Positions 5,546 to 13,461 of a stretch of 31,134 nucleotides of DNA are shown in pieces. Source of the stretch: an uncultured virus (IMG/VR IMGVR_UViG_3300006921_000001) (taxonomy: Duplodnaviria > Heunggongvirae > Uroviricota > Caudoviricetes). A program made the position numbers and the translations under genes. Below the pieces are notes generated by a model. That model was not told the origin of the DNA. It ran no database searches and saw only the letters and a program-made list of their open reading frames with translations. The stretch's first letter is position 1, and each line of letters starts with the position of its first letter. Location: IMG/VR virus record IMGVR_UViG_3300006921_000001. The stretch is one strand, 5' to 3'.

Positions 5546-6308
5546 AAAAAGGTAGTTATTAAATCATAATAACCATGTAATTATTGTAAATTTTTAAGCG
5601 TTAGTTTATATAACAACTAGGCACAATTTACAAATAAAAGGAATCTGTTTGTATGCGAGTTCTATTCATCGTGTCACTCGCATACCTATCTGACCCCCGC
5701 CCCGTATATAAACCGCGACGGCCCAAAAAGACATTTTCTATAGCGTATTTAAATACATCCATTGTAAATGCCTATCTAGATACAACCATATGGGTGTGGA
5801 AAGAAATTCCATCAATAACCCTTGCTGCGGTAAGCATGGCAGTAGCACTATAGACGCTTCATTAATTACACTAACAGTTAATTATTCATTGTCTACTTGT
5901 GCACTGCCTGCTACCATATGGTACAGATAAATAGTTTGACACTAATTACTCATCTTCGTCAAACATCTGTTACCCTCCTGTGGATTCTCCATTTTACTTA
6001 CGTGGAGAACCATATGGTTCGGTTTACGGTATACGGATGTATATGTATTCTGCTGTGCAGATATACTATTAAATCTGATACTCCGTATTCGATAAACCAA
6101 TGAACCTTGCTATTTCTTTCTCGCGCGGAATCCGGGGCCGGCAATAAATACATTTATTATGCCTTAACGAATGCTCCATTCTGTCCTTACTTTATGGACA
6201 AGAATGTCTCATTAGTACCATATGGTTGTTTTTGCTAGCGAGTAATAAAGGGAGGTGCAACGAACTAAAACGAAAATTTGTATAGTTTTTGCTTTCTTTA
6301 TTACGAGC

Positions 6309-6357
6309 AAAAAAATACCCCAGTCGGGTGGAAGGAGGGGTTTTACCCCCTCCCTCC
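6309..6357 (-). terminator. GC-rich hairpin followed by a T-run downstream of 6394..6852
   Basis: GGAGGGG 6334-6340 / CCCCTCC 6347-6353; A-run 6309-6315 reads as a T-run on the minus strand. Confidence 0.45.
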
Positions 6358-6393
6358 GAGGACATTTTGAGGCTTAAGCCTCGTCTTCATCTC

Positions 6394-6852
6394 TCATTGG
6401 ACATCGCCCTTGAGGAATGTGATAACGTCTTCTGCTGTACTAACGTCATTATCTGCCTTGATGAGGCGGTTAATTCTGTTAATACAAATCTCCTGCATCT
6501 TTGCTTCATCTCTAAGGGTGTTATCCCTCAATGTTAGAAGACGAAGCAGTAGATGAGCATCTCCGCGAATTGTCTGTTCTGCCTTGATAGATTCAGGATT
6601 ACCGGGTGTCTTACCACCGGGGCAAGCATTGTCAGTTCCTTGATATCGCTTTATGATTCCTGAAATCATCATCATTTCAGCCTTCTTTGCATTATCATCA
6701 CCTTCATTTCCACGGACTACGGAATCTTCAAGGAAGTCCTTAGTAGCAGTATCAGCGTCTTTCTCAGACCAGAATAACATAGCAAGCCATTTAGTGACTC
6801 GCTCCATCAATTTAGTCCATTTTTGTTCAGTTGTTGGTTTTGTTTCGACCAT
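6394..6852 (-). CDS. hypothetical protein embedded in the hairpin array
   Basis: 152-aa ORF; TTTAAGTA box 28 nt before ATG. Confidence 0.8.
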   Translation of the reverse strand: MVETKPTTEQKWTKLMERVTKWLAMLFWSEKDADTATKDFLEDSVVRGNEGDDNAKKAEMMMISGIIKRYQGTDNACPGGKTPGNPESIKAEQTIRGDAHLLLRLLTLRDNTLRDEAKMQEICINRINRLIKADNDVSTAEDVITFLKGDVQ

Positions 6853-6908
6853 ACTAAGTCATTTTTATAGGGTACTTAAACTTACCACAAAGTTTTCTTT
6901 TAAGTACC
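6853..6908 (-). promoter_or_regulatory. archaeal TATA-type promoter (TTTAAGTA, 6880-6873) inside a stem-loop arm
   Basis: Spacing fits a leaderless transcript; shares TATAGGGTA-y-TTAA and ACAAAGT with the copy at 9441-9495. Confidence 0.6.
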
Positions 6909-7275
6909 ATATGGTCCTCAACTTCAGTGGGACCAGAAATGGGGATAACGATACTAATACTAGGCCGCATCACCTCGTATTCACGACGTTTGATAAGTCG
7001 TATCGTACCATATGGTGACAAGGGAGCCCTAAAACGCGGTATTCACTACGTCAGAACATGCGGACATTAACTTGACTCTTTTCAGCGTTGTAAAAAACAT
7101 TTACTAACAGCAACAAAAAAAGCCGGCGTTAATGCCGTTTCTGTACCATATGGTTCGAGTTTGTATAACTTTGAGATACAAACGACTTTTGAATACATGG
7201 AAAAAGCGAACCTCAAAATTAAAAAAAGAAAAAATTGGTTTTTGTTAACGCGGAACCGTAAAACCGCGATGCAGG

Positions 7276-7446
7276 TCAATCTCTCAAAGAATCCCGTGAC
7301 TGATAGTCACCAGATTCAGTGATTGTTTGAACATGCCCACACTTATTGCATCGGATAACCGATTCTTGCGTCCATAACCTAGAATGGTGATGTATCGCTT
7401 TGTGTGTTTTTACTATTGTGTTATTGTTGTGCCTGCAATTGGTCAT
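7276..7446 (-). CDS. 56-aa zinc-finger-like protein (MTNCRH...RCNKCGHVQ...)
   Basis: Read by hand; CxH and CxxC; ATGA overlap with 7443..7616. Confidence 0.65.
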   Translation of the reverse strand: MTNCRHNNNTIVKTHKAIHHHSRLWTQESVIRCNKCGHVQTITESGDYQSRDSLRD

Positions 7447-7616
7447 TCGTTCAACTCCTTAAGTCGTTTCTCAACCTCTTCGGTTATTCGCCTTGTTGAG
7501 GCAATTAACTCGCTTTCGGAAGTGGAAGAAATACGTAAAGATTCAACAATGTAGTTTTGATACCTATCTTGCTTAATCTTTAAGACGAATTCAGGCCGAC
7601 GGAAGAATCTAAGCAT
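7443..7616 (-). CDS. 57-aa hypothetical protein (MLRFFRRPEFVLKIKQD...)
   Basis: Read by hand; TAATG and ATGA overlaps with both neighbours. Confidence 0.65.
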   Translation of the reverse strand: MLRFFRRPEFVLKIKQDRYQNYIVESLRISSTSESELIASTRRITEEVEKRLKELNE

Positions 7617-7945
7617 TACTGCCTACACTCCTTCGCCTGATTTGCCAGCCAATCTTGACGGCGTTGGTCATCAGTTCTCCAATCCCAATGTGAATAGGCA
7701 TCCTGAATCCACTTAGGATTCTCTTCAACCAATTCACGGAACTTATGACCGGCTCTTAGAGCCTTAAGTCGTTCCCTGCGCCAAATTGGGTTATCCCAAT
7801 TGTAGGCCTCTTTCTTAGAATTGTGTTCTGGAGCGATTCGCTTGAATCCCTTCACATACAATCCGTATTTTTTTCCATGTCGCTGTGTAAATGTATTACT
7901 CATGGCCCCAACCTCCGCAATTTTGGCAATCACCGTGGTCGGCAT
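7616..7945 (-). CDS. hypothetical basic Trp-rich protein
   Basis: ORF track; first gene of a coupled three-gene string. Confidence 0.75.
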   Translation of the reverse strand: MPTTVIAKIAEVGAMSNTFTQRHGKKYGLYVKGFKRIAPEHNSKKEAYNWDNPIWRRERLKALRAGHKFRELVEENPKWIQDAYSHWDWRTDDQRRQDWLANQAKECRQ

Positions 7946-8188
7946 TGTATTTCATTTCACATACTATACATTGTGTCATATTTGTTCACCTGCAAATTAA
8001 AAAAGGCGACTTTTTTGGTATCGCAGAAAGTCGTAACTGCGCCGATGGTCAAAATCGTGTTTCATCGGATTAATTTTAGCACCTATTACCGGATGCCTCG
8101 GATTTGGCTTTTTTAGGTCGTGAGAAGCCATTAACTCACGGGAAAAAGGCTTAAGCCTCTTCCTCATCGCGGACTATGATGATAATCA

Positions 8189-8824
8189 TCATTCATCCGC
8201 TCCAGTTTGCACTGAATCAGTAGATTCTTCCGCTGTGACCGTAAAGGTCATGTCGGAATTACCGTCCCAGATATTAGCACGGTATTTGCTCATTAGGTTC
8301 TGCTTCTCAGCATTAACCTTTAGAGCGACGAACTCTTCACGGGTTTCAATAACGCCGTAAGGGTTCTCAGAATCTCGTCCCGAAAGACGAAGAACCGATA
8401 GATGGTTCACATTCTGAATATCTGCTGATATGTCGAAGACATTTCCCCAGAACTCTTCAGCAACTGCAATGTGAGAATCAAGGTTTGCCTGAATCTCAGG
8501 GGATAATGTAGTTCCCCGTCCACGCTGGAAAGGCCATGAAAGAGAAATACCGTATCTCTCCTGCATTTGCCTACCAGTTAGGTGGATGCGCTGCTTTAGT
8601 TCACTGGATGGTGTTTCATCAGCCATTTGCTCCAACAACATACTTATCTGTTGTAGGTCGAAAGAAGCATAGTTCTTTTGCTTCTTCGTGCTGATGGCGT
8701 TTACCAGTGGGGTGGCCGCCTCATGCCATTCGTTCACCTTTGCGGAATAAACCGCAAAGTCATCTTCGCTCATTACTTTCGTGTTTTCACTCATTTTTGT
8801 CACACTCTTTGTTGTTTCTGCCAT
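8189..8824 (-). CDS. hypothetical protein embedded in the hairpin array
   Basis: 211-aa ORF; TTATATAT box upstream. Confidence 0.85.
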   Translation of the reverse strand: MAETTKSVTKMSENTKVMSEDDFAVYSAKVNEWHEAATPLVNAISTKKQKNYASFDLQQISMLLEQMADETPSSELKQRIHLTGRQMQERYGISLSWPFQRGRGTTLSPEIQANLDSHIAVAEEFWGNVFDISADIQNVNHLSVLRLSGRDSENPYGVIETREEFVALKVNAEKQNLMSKYRANIWDGNSDMTFTVTAEESTDSVQTGADE

Positions 8825-8841
8825 TCCTGACAGATATCTAT

Positions 8842-8895
8842 CGTATTTGAATCCTATATATAAGGTAGCCTAACAAAGTGGCTACCATATGGTAC
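8842..8895 (-). promoter_or_regulatory. promoter repeat copy (TTATATAT 8863-8856) abutting hairpin and ACCATATGGT
   Basis: Aligns over about 54 nt with 9441-9495. Confidence 0.65.
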
Positions 8896-8949
8896 GAGTT
8901 TAACGCTTTGAATTAAACGACTTTTGAAGAATGATAAAAGCGTACCTTG

Positions 8950-8972
8950 AAAAAAAAATAAAAAAAAAGAAA
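8950..8972 (-). terminator. oligo-T tract (archaeal-type terminator)
   Basis: Near-pure A-run on the plus strand; a similar tract lies at 7215-7234 after the 7276..7945 genes. Confidence 0.55.
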
Positions 8973-9440
8973 GGGAAGTCAGGAGCGTAAACAAAACAGT
9001 CGGTTAGCACGTTTTCGACATGAGTTATCGGCCGATTCTCATGCGATACTAAGGTGGAAACCCGTTCTGCAATACTCCATCATTCCCACGGGAAAAGAAA
9101 GGGTGCGGGTAGGACTACCTCGGGATAAGGGACACCTACAAAAGATTCACCGGATTACCCGTATACATTTGGTTTCGTATAGCGAAGGTTGGTTGACGGC
9201 TACTCTATCTTAACTCACCACAATAGGCTCTTACTCCTACTGTTGCTACTAACTACCCGCTAAGGTAATCCCGCTATTAAATCGGTCACGCTACGCCTTT
9301 TGATTATTATGACGTTATTGCACGATGGCAACACAAACGCATTTGGACACTATATCCAGTTGAGCAGGTGATTATCTTACCAATGCTTCACATCGGTTGT
9401 TCGATACACCACGGTCGGGTTTGCGGCCCGACATATCAGA
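8973..9440 (-). ncRNA. candidate structured non-coding RNA with a pseudoknot
   Basis: Lies between the promoter copy and the T-tract; no ORF of 60 aa or more; multiple stems and two crossing 8-bp helices. Confidence 0.55.
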
Positions 9441-9495
9441 CGTATTTGTATAGGGTATTTAAGGTAACTTTAACAAAGTAGTTACCATATGGTAC
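9441..9495 (-). promoter_or_regulatory. promoter repeat copy (TTAAATA on the minus strand) abutting hairpin and ACCATATGGT
   Basis: Paralog of 8842-8895. Confidence 0.6.
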
Positions 9496-10796
9496 TGGGG
9501 CAACTGGTAATTCTATGGTTGCGGTTTCTGCAGAAACCATTTTGCAAATTCCGGGAAACCACTCGGAATAATATAATTACCGTTGTCCCGTGTCCCCACC
9601 GTGGGGTTCACTTAAACTATCAGTTAAGTACCATATGGTTGGCGGTTTACGTGCGACGGAAACTTCTAGTTTACTTAAGTAATACTACTAGGATGAGGTG
9701 TTTTAATTGTTATTAAAGCCGAAGACGACGTTAATTGCTTAGGGTCGTTGCCGATAAACCAAATGACAAAACCTTACTTGTTTACGCGGCTGGGGGCTCA
9801 ACGTTCACCATAGATTCGTGATTTCACGACGAATCTTATGTTTCTCTTATTCACACCATATGGTACGAATCTATATAATTTTTTGATAATATCAAAAAAG
9901 GAGTAATAGTTGTCTTCGAGAAAATGAGACAAATATGTACGACTGATACTTTTTGTGAAAAATTACATAGATGAGTCCCTAGCGGCTTTCCGCGCCAGAG
10001 CGGGAGTACAGACCTCTAAACCCCTTTAGTAAAACACCTATAAATAAAAACATTTATTATCATAAATCTTTTACTAGGATTTATGTTAATGTAACGGTAA
10101 ACCATTACATTTACTAAACCCACAGTGCCTTAGAATTCTGTACCATATGGTGTGAACCTCATGAGGTTCTTATATCCCGCGAAACCCCTGCCCCTAACCC
10201 AAATAAATTACTTTTATTTCACTCAGCGTAGCCTCTCCCATGTAAAAACATTTAACATATACGTGTCTACGCCCTGCGAAAGAAAACTAACGCTGTCGCT
10301 ATTTCTTTGCACGTCCCATGTTATGATTCATACAACCATATGGTCCACATTTATGTTGGGACCCCGACGAGGCACAAAGGCTTATTGTTTTTAAATTTCA
10401 TTAGAGATGAAAAAGCATAACGCTGACGCTCAACAAGCGTACCATATGGTCCCATCCCCGAGGTATTCCCGTTGGCTTAACTTTCCTTGAATAAAGGAAT
10501 TTTTACCCGTTATTAAATACAATTAATAGTGCAAAAACCCTACCGTTTCATTTATCCTGCAGAAACTCAAGTACCATATGGGTGGCCTTGATTATAATTG
10601 AATTTATAATAAGGTGCCGCGTTAGGCAAACCCGCACCGCTGCGGTACTACAATGATTTAATTAAACACATTAGTACCATATGGTTCCGCTTTGCGTGAA
10701 CTTATTTTGTTATTTAAATAAAAAAACCAAATAACCCATTCAGATACCCAATCTTTATAGGGAACCCCAAAGTTTGCCTATTACAGAGGGAAAAAT

Positions 10797-11153
10797 ATGT
10801 ATACCTTCAATTTTAACTTAGGTGGCGGGCAAAATACACCCGATACACATGATTTTGAGCCAATAGTCAAGGCACTAAAAGACATTACAGAGGATTGGCA
10901 ATCATTCTATAACCTATACAAAAGATTCGCGCCACCACCAGAAGAAAACCAAGCCCAAATACAAGCATGGTTTAAAGAAATCAAACTTTCCCTCGACGCA
11001 ATCATAGAATTGTATAATAAAATACCTAATTCGCCAGATATGGACAATATACATGGCCCGGAAGAAGCAGAAAATATGCTAAATCAATTCGTTGAATTGA
11101 ATAAGTTATTTCAACCAGACAAACCAGATACAGATACAACAGGATATAATTAA
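10797..11153 (+). CDS. hypothetical acidic helical protein
   Basis: ORF track; TTTATA at 10754 and GAGG upstream. Confidence 0.7.
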   Translation: MYTFNFNLGGGQNTPDTHDFEPIVKALKDITEDWQSFYNLYKRFAPPPEENQAQIQAWFKEIKLSLDAIIELYNKIPNSPDMDNIHGPEEAENMLNQFVELNKLFQPDKPDTDTTGYN

Positions 11154-11325
11154 ATACGCTATTTAAATAATGTTATTTAGATAAACCTTGGAAATAGAAT
11201 AAAAAAAATAATTAAATTTTCGCTAGTCGCAAAAAAATTACCGCCCAATTTTTGAAAAATGAAAAATGATATGGAAGTGTTGTAAGCATAGTAACTTTTA
11301 TTAATAATATAACAGATGATAAACT

Positions 11326-13461
11326 ATGTGGCGTGATATTCTCAAGGATGAAGGTAGGTCATTAGCCTCATATATAGATACTCCGGGTACTCGACTTAAT
11401 CCAAGTATTTTTAATATTGATGATGTTGCTTACAGTGCAGGTGCGCGAGAATTATTCGGTGAAAGAAATGAGAAGTCACTCATAATAACTGAAGAAAAAG
11501 GAAATGAAATTGTTATAGCAATATACAAAGGAGAAATTCTTAGTGAAGTTGTTGATGATTGTAAAAATTTTCTAAAGGAATTTTTAGAAACAGAAATATT
11601 TAATAATCTAGAACAAGTCCAAAAAGGGCCTATTGATAAAATATTAGATGATACTGTTAGACCTATAGTTGCTAGATTTGTTGGTAGAATGCTTGGTGTG
11701 TTTTTTGAAGATAGCACTCCAATAAGAGAGGGAGGGATTTTAGCGTCAGGAAAACTTAGAGTCAATAATGAAGTTACTGTAAATACAATTGTGTATGGTG
11801 ATTATCTACAAGGTTTAAAGGACGCAGTACATGACAATGCGGGAACGACAGTCACTTATCCGGGTTATATTGGCAATCCGAGTGCGGTTGATATAAAGAA
11901 TAACCTAGGTGAGTTAGTCCATGATTCAGGGGCTCGAAGAACTGATTCATATAGATTTAGGGATAAATATGGCTCAAGCAATAGAGCATATCTTCGTCAC
12001 TCTGATTGGCACTCCACTTTAAGTTTAACTAGTGACGAAGATTACGGCGGAGATGCCGGCTCAGGCGAGCCTCTGAAAATACCTAGGTCACAAAGGGTTA
12101 CTAATGCAAACAATCAAACATATGTTAGAATTCAAAAAGATAATTTAAATAATATGAGTAATGAGAATCTATCTAATATGATTATAAAACACATGGACGC
12201 TACTCTTGGCAATCTAGGCCGCGACCATCGACCGAGTAAAGCAATGGATGTAACACGTAAGTTTGTACAACAAATATTATCTGAAAAAAATATAGCAGAG
12301 CATTTAGGGGGCAACCCCGTATTAGCAAGAGAACTTTTTACTTATGGTGGGCAAATGCGAGATGTTCCGGGTAAGAATCCAGAAGATATTATGGAACGTC
12401 TTCCAGAATACACCAAGAGAAATTTACAAATCGAGCGAGAAAGTCCGGGTGTAGAAAACTATAAGGTATTACTTGGAGACCAAGAACTTTTAAGGACGTA
12501 TTTTTCTCTTAGATTTGGAATTGACAGGAGTAAGCCCATAAAAATAAAAGGGATTAGACGTAGTAAACCAATTGCACAAGTTACACATGCAGGTCTCCGT
12601 CGCAAAGGACCCTTTACTAATACTTCTCTTATATATGGTGCTAGAAACCCAGAAGGCAAAGAATATTTAGATGTAGCAAGATTTGGCTATACTCATACAA
12701 AAATTCATCAGCCAGTCGAGGCACTAAAGGAGATACTAGGGATGTTAACCAATACTAAAGAAAAATCACCAAGGTATGATATGCCAGTAGATTTAGTTGC
12801 ACACTCTAGTTTAGAAAGCACAATAGCACAAAGTAAAGAAGAGGATGGGGTATCATGGGAATATAGTAATATAAATGAAAGACATTTTGTAAAGATAGAA
12901 CATTCAATACCCTACCCTTCAGATAGTTATCTCATAGAGTATTTTGACCAGATTTTCGGAGGAACAAATGTTGACAGAGTGTATGATATGATACAAGACG
13001 CAATGGAAAATGATACAATGGCAGTATTAAAGTTTAAATTTTATGTTGATGCCACGGGTGGAAGAAGAGTAAAATATGACAGGGGTAGTTCGGAAATAGA
13101 GTATGAGGGTTTTCCCGATGATACACAAACCAATTATGCTGGCCAAGCACATTATTGTATATATGATAGGATTGATAGGACAATAGAAGAAGACAGGGCA
13201 GGTCAGGTTTGCATAATTAGTTATGCGGATAATTTAGGAGATTCTGTTGTGCAATTTTTAATGGGGCAAAAAAACATATTTCCCGTATTAAAAGGTAATT
13301 ATAGAGATGGTTCCGTAAGTATTTCTAAGGACTACATCACAAGGGAAGACATAGAGCATATAGCGATGGTCCCAGACGATTTAAAAAGACCCTTAAAACA
13401 ATTAGTTGATTTAATCATATGGCGTGGGAAAAGAAGCAGGTTAAAAGTAATCGAAGAGTAA
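11326..13461 (+). CDS. large hypothetical protein with N-terminal MWRDILK motif
   Basis: 711-aa ORF; TTTTATTA 30 nt before ATG. Confidence 0.85.
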   Translation: MWRDILKDEGRSLASYIDTPGTRLNPSIFNIDDVAYSAGARELFGERNEKSLIITEEKGNEIVIAIYKGEILSEVVDDCKNFLKEFLETEIFNNLEQVQKGPIDKILDDTVRPIVARFVGRMLGVFFEDSTPIREGGILASGKLRVNNEVTVNTIVYGDYLQGLKDAVHDNAGTTVTYPGYIGNPSAVDIKNNLGELVHDSGARRTDSYRFRDKYGSSNRAYLRHSDWHSTLSLTSDEDYGGDAGSGEPLKIPRSQRVTNANNQTYVRIQKDNLNNMSNENLSNMIIKHMDATLGNLGRDHRPSKAMDVTRKFVQQILSEKNIAEHLGGNPVLARELFTYGGQMRDVPGKNPEDIMERLPEYTKRNLQIERESPGVENYKVLLGDQELLRTYFSLRFGIDRSKPIKIKGIRRSKPIAQVTHAGLRRKGPFTNTSLIYGARNPEGKEYLDVARFGYTHTKIHQPVEALKEILGMLTNTKEKSPRYDMPVDLVAHSSLESTIAQSKEEDGVSWEYSNINERHFVKIEHSIPYPSDSYLIEYFDQIFGGTNVDRVYDMIQDAMENDTMAVLKFKFYVDATGGRRVKYDRGSSEIEYEGFPDDTQTNYAGQAHYCIYDRIDRTIEEDRAGQVCIISYADNLGDSVVQFLMGQKNIFPVLKGNYRDGSVSISKDYITREDIEHIAMVPDDLKRPLKQLVDLIIWRGKRSRLKVIEE

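Follow-up and report, generated by a model that had tools for sequence, protein, structure and literature searches.

A stretch of about 470 nt in the genome of an uncultured tailed virus (positions 8973–9440) seems to hold no gene, which raises the question of what it specifies and how it came to lie where it does. The window analysed here is the whole piece of DNA in which this stretch is found, 31,134 nt in length, filed as IMG/VR record IMGVR_UViG_3300006921_000001 (Caudoviricetes). A first-pass annotation had proposed that the stretch makes a pseudoknotted non-coding RNA from the minus strand, with a promoter and a terminator of its own. The following sections take up its coding content, the signals that bound it, the RNA found from it and the known systems that it resembles.

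The stretch and the virus that carries it

The first-pass annotation had seen no gene in the stretch beyond a 20-codon open reading frame (ORF), located at 9434..9375, and this was borne out: all six frames of 8973–9440 are interrupted by all three stop codons, and the longest ORF across the 610-nt cassette is 37 aa. Other genetic codes were considered as the source of a reading frame and none of them opens one. In each of the six frames of the stretch the codon-usage score fell below zero, on a scale where held-out genes of at least 85 aa give 0.07–0.44 bits per codon, and Pfam returned nothing real for the three longest stop-free stretches. A tblastx search that compared the stretch with some 1 Mb of DNA from related viruses gave no match at E ≤ 0.1, no sequence similarity of the stretch to the same DNA was found, and DNA and protein searches of phage records with the window gave no matches. 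Two probes taken from the stretch had no matches in viral contigs, and a third matched two GC-rich contigs in just the 20-mer, neither of them related to the stretch. No repeats were found inside it. The annotation's description of the stretch as GC-richer than its surroundings was also correct, the GC content of 9001–9500 being 0.452 against about 0.30–0.42 elsewhere in the window.

The stretch lies within an array of copies of the palindrome ACCATATGGT, and a scan of viral contigs for two copies of this palindrome 85–115 nt apart returned 39 loci on 37 contigs, many of them 90–99 kb long. Four of these contigs are complete genomes (G002–G005), 95–99 kb in length and with terminal repeats. 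All four encode a family B DNA polymerase; in G002, G004 and G005 it is divided between two genes, the pieces measuring about 570 and about 305 aa, with stop codons within the second match, and the nearest counterparts of the unsplit G003 polymerase are the polymerases of haloarchaeal tailed viruses. Magrovirus genomes are described as terminally redundant and about 100 kb long, and a split polymerase is reported for group B magroviruses (Philosof et al., PMC5434244). Around the palindrome block, the window and G003 share proteins whose order is conserved, and on the strength of these shared proteins and of the features of the relatives the window is therefore read as a magrovirus, that is, a tailed virus whose hosts are Marine Group II archaea. 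This link rests on the shared syntenic proteins and the shared module described below, the family B polymerase having been seen in the relatives G002–G005. No T7-type RNA polymerase was found in the relatives, a search that shows little since the control genomes were also without a match, and no chaperonin was found in them. PHROGs and Pfam left most of the window proteins without a name.

Two other features of the window were recorded. Three consecutive tRNA genes (Lys-UUU, Glu-UUC and Leu-UAA) occupy 2343–2596 on the minus strand. Upstream of a 711-aa gene, at 11170–11270, lies an element of some 90 nt that holds no gene and is kept in all ten aligned family sequences with 32 invariant columns, among them GGAAATAGA; it probably controls the rightward operon.

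Palindromic joints and the cassette between them

The window contains 16 sites of ACCATATGG(T/G), from 5785 to 10685, where the chance expectation for the 9-mer is 0.28, and in each of the complete genomes G002–G005 the palindromes are confined to one locus of 3–5 kb. The copy at the right-hand end of the stretch faces left, into it, and is followed by the elements compiled in Table 1. In 37 related virus contigs the same module is found, consisting of the palindrome, then a hairpin, CTTTG and a TATA-like box, and the aligned oriented element reads ACCATATGGT, 3–9 nt, CTTTG, 5–13 nt, W-ACC-YTA-tat. Among 210 related palindromes the oriented motif occurs at 91–93 sides; CTTTG lies no more than 14 nt away on at least one side in 103 of the 210 distinct palindromes and on both sides in 37. 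The arms running from GGT to ACC form 1.76 contiguous pairs on average, against 0.76 when partners are permuted (maximum 1.14 in 1000 permutations), and 31 of 91 have at least three contiguous pairs where 7.4 would be expected. An ORF of at least 50 aa starts no more than 70 nt away from 50 of 90 module sides, compared with 80 of 314 other sides and 123 of 400 random places. Start codons and ribosome-site words such as GGTGA often follow downstream of the modules, and T-rich tracts lie on the inbound side of the joints. The ATG within the palindrome was tried as a start codon and rejected, the median ORF from it being just 12 codons (564 reads). Scanning a genome collection for the module gave 6 loci against an estimated 38 or so expected by chance; all of these save a contig filed under an Altibacter metagenome-assembled genome (MAG) are single hits, so there is no host signal.

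Table 1. Coordinates of the features in and around the stretch.
Feature	Position	Strand	Remarks
Palindrome ACCATATGGT	9484..9493	.	Upstream joint of the cassette; 1 of 16 sites
Promoter module	9456..9486	minus	Inverted repeat, CTTTG loop, ACC, TATA-like box
Inverted repeat of module	9480–9486 / 9463–9469		GGTAACT / AGTTACC
CTTTG loop of module	9474–9478		
TATA-like box	9456–9462		TTAAATA
RNA present in RNA libraries	9101..9434	minus	Four contigs; candidate diverged, enlarged manA-type RNA
5' hairpin P1	9414..9432	minus	GUCGGG-CCGCAAA-CCCGAC; in folds; aligned to model P1
Closing helix, 5' strand	9406..9410	minus	GGUGU; partner 9102–9106
Hairpin with A-rich internal loops	9375..9404	minus	UC-GAACAA-[CCGAUG..CAUUGG]-UAA-GA; aligned to R1/R2 manA-type hairpin
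Closing helix, 3' strand	9102..9106	minus	GCACC; variant 9106 G>A changes U.G to U-A
First oligo-U tract	9093..9100	minus	UUUCUUUU; likely 3' end of the RNA seen
3' remainder	8973..9089	minus	Long hairpin domain, box C/D-like words, complementary ends
Long T-tract	8950..8972	minus	TRF; candidate archaeal terminator
Inbound half of next joint	8894..8949	minus	Outer arms GGTACG/CGTACC around CAAAG-loop hairpin
Palindrome ACCATATGGT	8884..8893	.	Downstream joint; promoter of 211-aa gene next, 8834–8883
600-bp cassette	8894..9493	.	Present or absent between strains (L048, L049 comparison)

Both ends of the cassette have paralogs in the window. The promoter paralog that the annotation had placed at 9441–9495 was recovered as 9433–9495, which matches 8834–8895 with 77.8% identity over 63 nt, and two compensatory changes set the stem of one copy apart from that of the other (GGTAGCC/GGCTACC against GGTAACT/AGTTACC). 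At the other end, the long T-tract named in the annotation was found by TRF as an A/T tract, and the segment 8883–8968 is a paralog of 7144–7234 (78% over 91 nt, T-tract included), the sequence directly after the end of a minus-strand operon, whose own T-rich tract lies at about 7205–7236. Archaeal transcription is known to use an oligo-T stop and a TATA box some 26 nt upstream of the start, and each joint is read here as a putative inbound terminator combined with a putative outbound promoter of archaeal type. On the plus strand, the right flank of the 8884 palindrome (8884–8972) is an expanded copy of the module facing in the plus direction, followed by an A-rich leader that resembles those found before genes in the relatives and after which no start codon follows; this copy may be a relic or may act as a second promoter in convergent orientation.

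The neighbouring 211-aa protein is encoded at eight metagenome loci, five of which are near-identical to the window. The cassette is present in locus L047 (98.7% identical), and loci L048 and L049 (91–92% protein identity) are without 8894–9493, the palindrome being joined directly to the promoter of the 211-aa gene that runs from 8883. Judged from these strain sequences, the boundaries of the cassette are the palindromes themselves. The adjacent unit 9494–9629 is inverted in L047, L048 and L049, and in L048 one of the palindromes that flank it has decayed. Compared with L048 and L049, the segment 9864–10141 has identical ends around a central block of about 85 nt that is replaced by unrelated sequence, so that its divergence is mosaic and not gradual. 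When covariation was tested on the cassette next to the stretch, the test failed; the divergence of that cassette from L048 and L049 consists of one swapped block with identical sequence on either side. Seven short units of 100–290 nt (at 9630, 9855, 10142, 10335, 10441, 10573 and 10676) hold no ORF of note, and together with the stretch they make up some 2 kb of gene-poor sequence where one gene arm gives way to the other. Most other seemingly gene-free cassettes of the relatives have an ORF on the opposite strand. The cassette of locus L008 is built like that of the window, with an RNA, about 100 nt more and a long T-tract.

The RNA of the cassette and its likeness to manA

More than half of the words of the stretch are present in each of 15 DNA runs, and 11–21% of them in each of five RNA runs. 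Contigs from four RNA runs of three studies, mapped on 7500–11500, lie at 9224–9434, 9213–9405 (depth 57), 9196–9388 and 9101–9410; these contigs carry no information on strand, true ends or expression level, and that none of the four runs has a contig on 7500–9100 (8973–9089 included) or 9435–11500 says nothing about those parts. The RNA seen thus spans about 335 nt, from 9434 to 9101, and the length of about 470 nt proposed in the first-pass annotation has to be reduced. Counted from the first T of the TATA-like box, the right-most contig end, 9434, comes 28 nt later, which fits the position expected for an archaeal start site, about 26–30 nt from the box. The contig at 9101–9410, from run X19, ends one base short of UUUCUUUU and then carries eight non-templated letters, A-rich when read in the minus sense and absent from the L047 DNA, which hints weakly at a 3' end of a minus-strand RNA at about 9101. 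Taken together, the promoter of the module, the contigs from RNA libraries and the absence of coding signal support the annotation's view of the stretch as a gene-free unit read from the minus strand with its own promoter and a T-rich end, and it is likely that the stretch makes a transcribed accessory non-coding RNA.

The pseudoknot fared less well. The local hairpins and the two perfect 8-bp helices are present exactly as listed in the annotation, but the suggestion that the latter form a pseudoknot or a switch did not hold, as both helices are at chance level: two perfect 8-bp inverted pairs were seen, 1000 dinucleotide shuffles have a mean of 1.44, and 40% of the shuffles have at least two. 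A natural variant shared by L047 and X19 breaks one pair of the helix 9264–9271/9152–9159 (at 9266) and two pairs of the helix 9253–9260/9105–9112 (at 9255 and 9106), with no compensating change of the partner in either helix. The folding energy of the stretch as a whole is ordinary, with MFE z-scores of -0.40 (minus strand) and +0.63 (plus strand), -1.57 for 9196–9434 and -0.92 for 9101–9434. The L047 variants at 9255 and 9266 disrupt predicted pairs in the large insert described below, and the one at 9046 disrupts a predicted stem. In the stretch, Rfam gave no match at E ≤ 10 and ARAGORN found no tRNA, in keeping with the annotation, which had seen no tRNA signature.

The sole locally stable part of the stretch is 8970–9089 (z = -3.7). 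Just before the long T-tract, this 3' remainder contains the box C/D-like words AUGAUGG ... CUGA with complementary ends, an arrangement that occurs once in the window, not at all in 775 kb of strand from the relatives and in 4 of 3000 shuffles. A box C/D kink-turn has a C box RUGAUGA, a D box CUGA, tandem G.A pairs and a 3-nt bulge by the terminal stem. The terminal stem at 8973–9089 abuts the boxes without a 3-nt bulge, and a kink-turn RNA of this type was rejected.

The RNA from 9434 to 9101 is probably not a new class, and its layout matches that of manA-type RNAs of related viruses. Directly behind a palindrome module, manA or manA-like RNAs were found in three loci: L033 (1452–1720), which Rfam recognises as manA with 70 bits, L008 (2154 to about 1870, minus strand), a weak Rfam match of 21–25 bits, and L055 (2333 to about 2060, minus strand), which with L054 represents a third member that scores 41.9 bits with R1, a custom model of the 5' domain built from L033 and L008. 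The RNAs of L033 and L008 start 29–32 nt past the TATA-like box of a module. In L033 the manA RNA is followed by a ribosome site and a 105-aa ORF. The L054/L055 contig is the one assigned to an Altibacter (Flavobacteriaceae) MAG, which is probably an effect of binning.

The unit from P1 to the U-tract, 9434–9101, is exactly the span of the RNA contigs. P1 starts 31 nt past the first T of the TATA-like box, compared with 27–32 nt in L008, L033 and L055, and all four RNAs finish in CC(C) and a U-tract. The hairpin with A-rich internal loops has zero non-standard pairs when aligned to R1 and to R2, the latter a model of the three members with the P1 hairpin added. The 5' domain of manA comprises P1, the hairpin with A-rich internal loops and a small hexaloop hairpin. 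The closing helix appears in both the MFE and the centroid structure of 9101–9434, and its counterparts are GGAGU/ACUCC in L033 and L008 and GGGAU/AUCCC in L055, so that it covaries across the four RNAs, and the 9106 variant preserves it; its placement is partly free, and we estimate the chance probability at about 0.1 to 0.5. In an alignment of the four sequences, fitted to R2 and hence with model-dependent pairing counts, 94.2% of cells pair, against 72.8% after shuffling (a level reached by 0 of 500 shuffles) and 25–55% when partners are slid, and both sides have changed in 10 of 14 pairs.

The Rfam manA model (RF01745, gathering cut-off 55.2 bits) had no match at E ≤ 10 in 8700–11400 or 8940–9470, so that the target lies below the cut-off, and it detected L033 and L008 as positive controls. 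With R1 the target ranks third in the window, at 7.0 bits. With R2 it ranks first (9432–9354, minus strand, 13.0 bits, E 0.098 by a rough calibration), on the expected strand and 2 nt off the expected start, but by a small margin, as the next match in the window scores 11.6 bits and a background match in 576 kb of relatives 12.1 bits. Local sequence alignment of the target to L008 and L033 is at chance (z = -0.87 and 0.01). The conserved manA loop words CUGAAUAA, GGUGGUG and AGUAAUCC are not kept; the target has GAACAA and UAUAGUG there, GAACAA standing at the position of the expected UGAAUAA, and one 3' hairpin of the manA consensus seems to be absent. No manA was found in G002–G005, and a pattern joining 5' and 3' manA words refound L008 and L033 among viral contigs and nothing further. 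The target differs from L047 by 6 changes in 468 nt, which is the rate of the flanking genes and so gives no sign of extra constraint. A kinship with manA, much diverged, is thus plausible but unproven, and we regard the case as evenly balanced.

Proposed explanation and comparison with known systems

The explanation that we favour overall, with confidence a little better than even, is that of a leftward unit driven by its joint, which would make an enlarged, free-standing early RNA of manA type, about 335 nt long, from an accessory cassette. The 5-kb block of the window would have been assembled from units joined at the palindrome, each joint bringing together an inbound T-rich stop signal and an outbound archaeal-type promoter. 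The joint at 9484–9493 would launch leftward transcription at about 9432–9434, and the RNA is predicted to adopt a multi-branched fold with a 5' hairpin, a helix (9406–9410/9102–9106) that closes the rest and an oligo-U end. Such an RNA would be a diverged and enlarged manA-type molecule that acts as a free-standing early RNA; the remainder of the cassette would comprise 117 nt more and the long T-tract, and recombination at the palindromes may gain, lose or flip the whole 600-bp cassette.

The likeness to manA could instead be a coincidence and the transcribed unit the source of an orphan RNA specific to this lineage. We consider this unlikely though well worth weighing: Rfam is without a match, there is no similarity to the 1 Mb of related virus DNA and the score with the custom model is borderline, but the position, the start distance, the 5' hairpin, the hairpin with A-rich internal loops, the closing helix and the oligo-U tail are all common to the three manA-type RNAs of the family, and R2 ranks the target first with the expected strand and very nearly the expected start. 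Rather less probable again is a decayed cassette, a former gene unit that has retained its promoter and is still transcribed into an RNA without function. Such decay would accord with a cassette that is dispensable (absent in L048 and L049), diverges from L047 to the same degree as its neighbours, has ordinary fold energies and contains, on the plus strand, an 83-codon stop-free stretch (8962–9210) after an A-rich leader of the plus-facing-module type; tblastx and Pfam found no relatives of a gene, however, the codon score is negative in every frame and the GC content is above that of the neighbouring sequence.

Leaderless translation is common in archaea, and the RNA might be a leaderless mRNA for the 20-residue peptide, with everything beyond 9375 forming a long 3' tail. 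The A of the AUG coincides with the end of the right-most RNA contig, and the codon score of the ORF (+0.125 bits per codon) is inside the range of real small genes, but that contig end is one observation, the ORF overlaps the P1 hairpin and has no homolog, and other genes of the family use ribosome sites of the GGTGA type, all of which makes this reading highly improbable. We give just as little credence to an element acting at the DNA level, such as a replication origin or a regulator-binding array with incidental transcripts. The palindromes are clustered in one locus per genome, at the gene-arm switch, and seven more short gene-free units lie at 9494–10675, as such an element might require, but the module stands at a fixed distance from gene starts, the target is without repeats and its RNA is present in RNA libraries.

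The case matters because magroviruses, although uncultured, rank with the most abundant viruses in surface ocean waters. It supplies a promoter and terminator signal that can be tested and a transcript open to detection in public metatranscriptomes, and it gives evidence that an RNA gene, besides protein genes, moves as a cassette at palindromic joints. In the literature searched, the main text of magrovirus papers included, no published link of magroviruses to the palindrome ACCATATGGT or to structured RNAs was found. Tan1, an abundant Marine Group II RNA, was compared by eye alone and set aside, its sequence being unlike that of the target.

Several described systems resemble parts of the locus. 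The crAss-like phage phi14:2 is reported to produce early long non-coding RNAs from intergenic regions (bioRxiv 10.1101/2020.03.07.982082); it shares with the present virus long gene-free regions in a marine genome of about 100 kb, those of phi14:2 being described as transcribed strongly and early, with function unknown, and it differs in being a bacterial virus with no palindrome array and no sequence likeness to the target. HGTV-1, a haloarchaeal tailed virus, is described as having a motif of TATA box and inverted repeat before most left-arm ORFs, which has been likened to PeSLs (PMC3950731). The window resembles it as a tailed archaeal virus with a repeated TATA-like box and inverted repeat, but HGTV-1 is without this palindrome (4 matches at no more than one mismatch, and 4 in the control). 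The closest described system to the joints is that of the promoter-early stem-loop cassettes, or PeSLs, of T4-type phages (PMC4122927), with which they share a repeated motif of terminator and promoter. As described there, the motif flanks the small accessory units of a hyperplastic region and marks the indel point between close relatives, and the cassette correspondingly has the composite motif at both ends, promoter side inward, with indel and inversion at the motif. Unlike PeSLs, the magrovirus joints have a promoter of archaeal type and an invariant 10-bp palindrome core, their units are also found inverted, and the unit studied here bears an RNA and not an ORF.

The manA RNAs themselves are described as elements of marine sequences, cyanophages and gamma-proteobacteria that lie mostly in 5' UTRs and have no known function (Weinberg et al. 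2010, PMC2864571), and according to a cryo-EM report they self-assemble into closed multimers (bioRxiv 10.64898/2026.07.01.735769). If the kinship is true, an orphan cyanophage RNA extends to archaeal viruses, which bears on the purpose of the RNA. A wider reading, in which the free-standing enlarged manA-type RNAs of marine viruses of archaea are mobile cassettes equipped with promoters, is one that we put forward tentatively and with considerable doubt; if it is correct, one fold serves cyanobacterial and archaeal viruses regardless of the expression machinery of the host. Use of the fold across such hosts would argue against a role as a riboswitch and might favour a host-independent one, for example self-assembly into closed multimers by an RNA made early and abundantly in infection. 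The target resembles manA in being marine, virus-borne and placed at the very start of a transcription unit, and in its predicted layout of a 5' hairpin, a helix that closes a multi-branched core and a hairpin with A-rich internal loops. It differs in the insert of about 215 nt in its core, in its altered loop words and in being invisible to the Rfam model; no gene lies downstream of it, whereas manA is mostly found in 5' UTRs, and its virus is assigned to archaea, whereas manA is described from cyanophages, gamma-proteobacteria and marine metagenomes (PMC2864571). A manA that is free-standing, enlarged and borne on a cassette would, in a virus of archaea, add a new form of this RNA.
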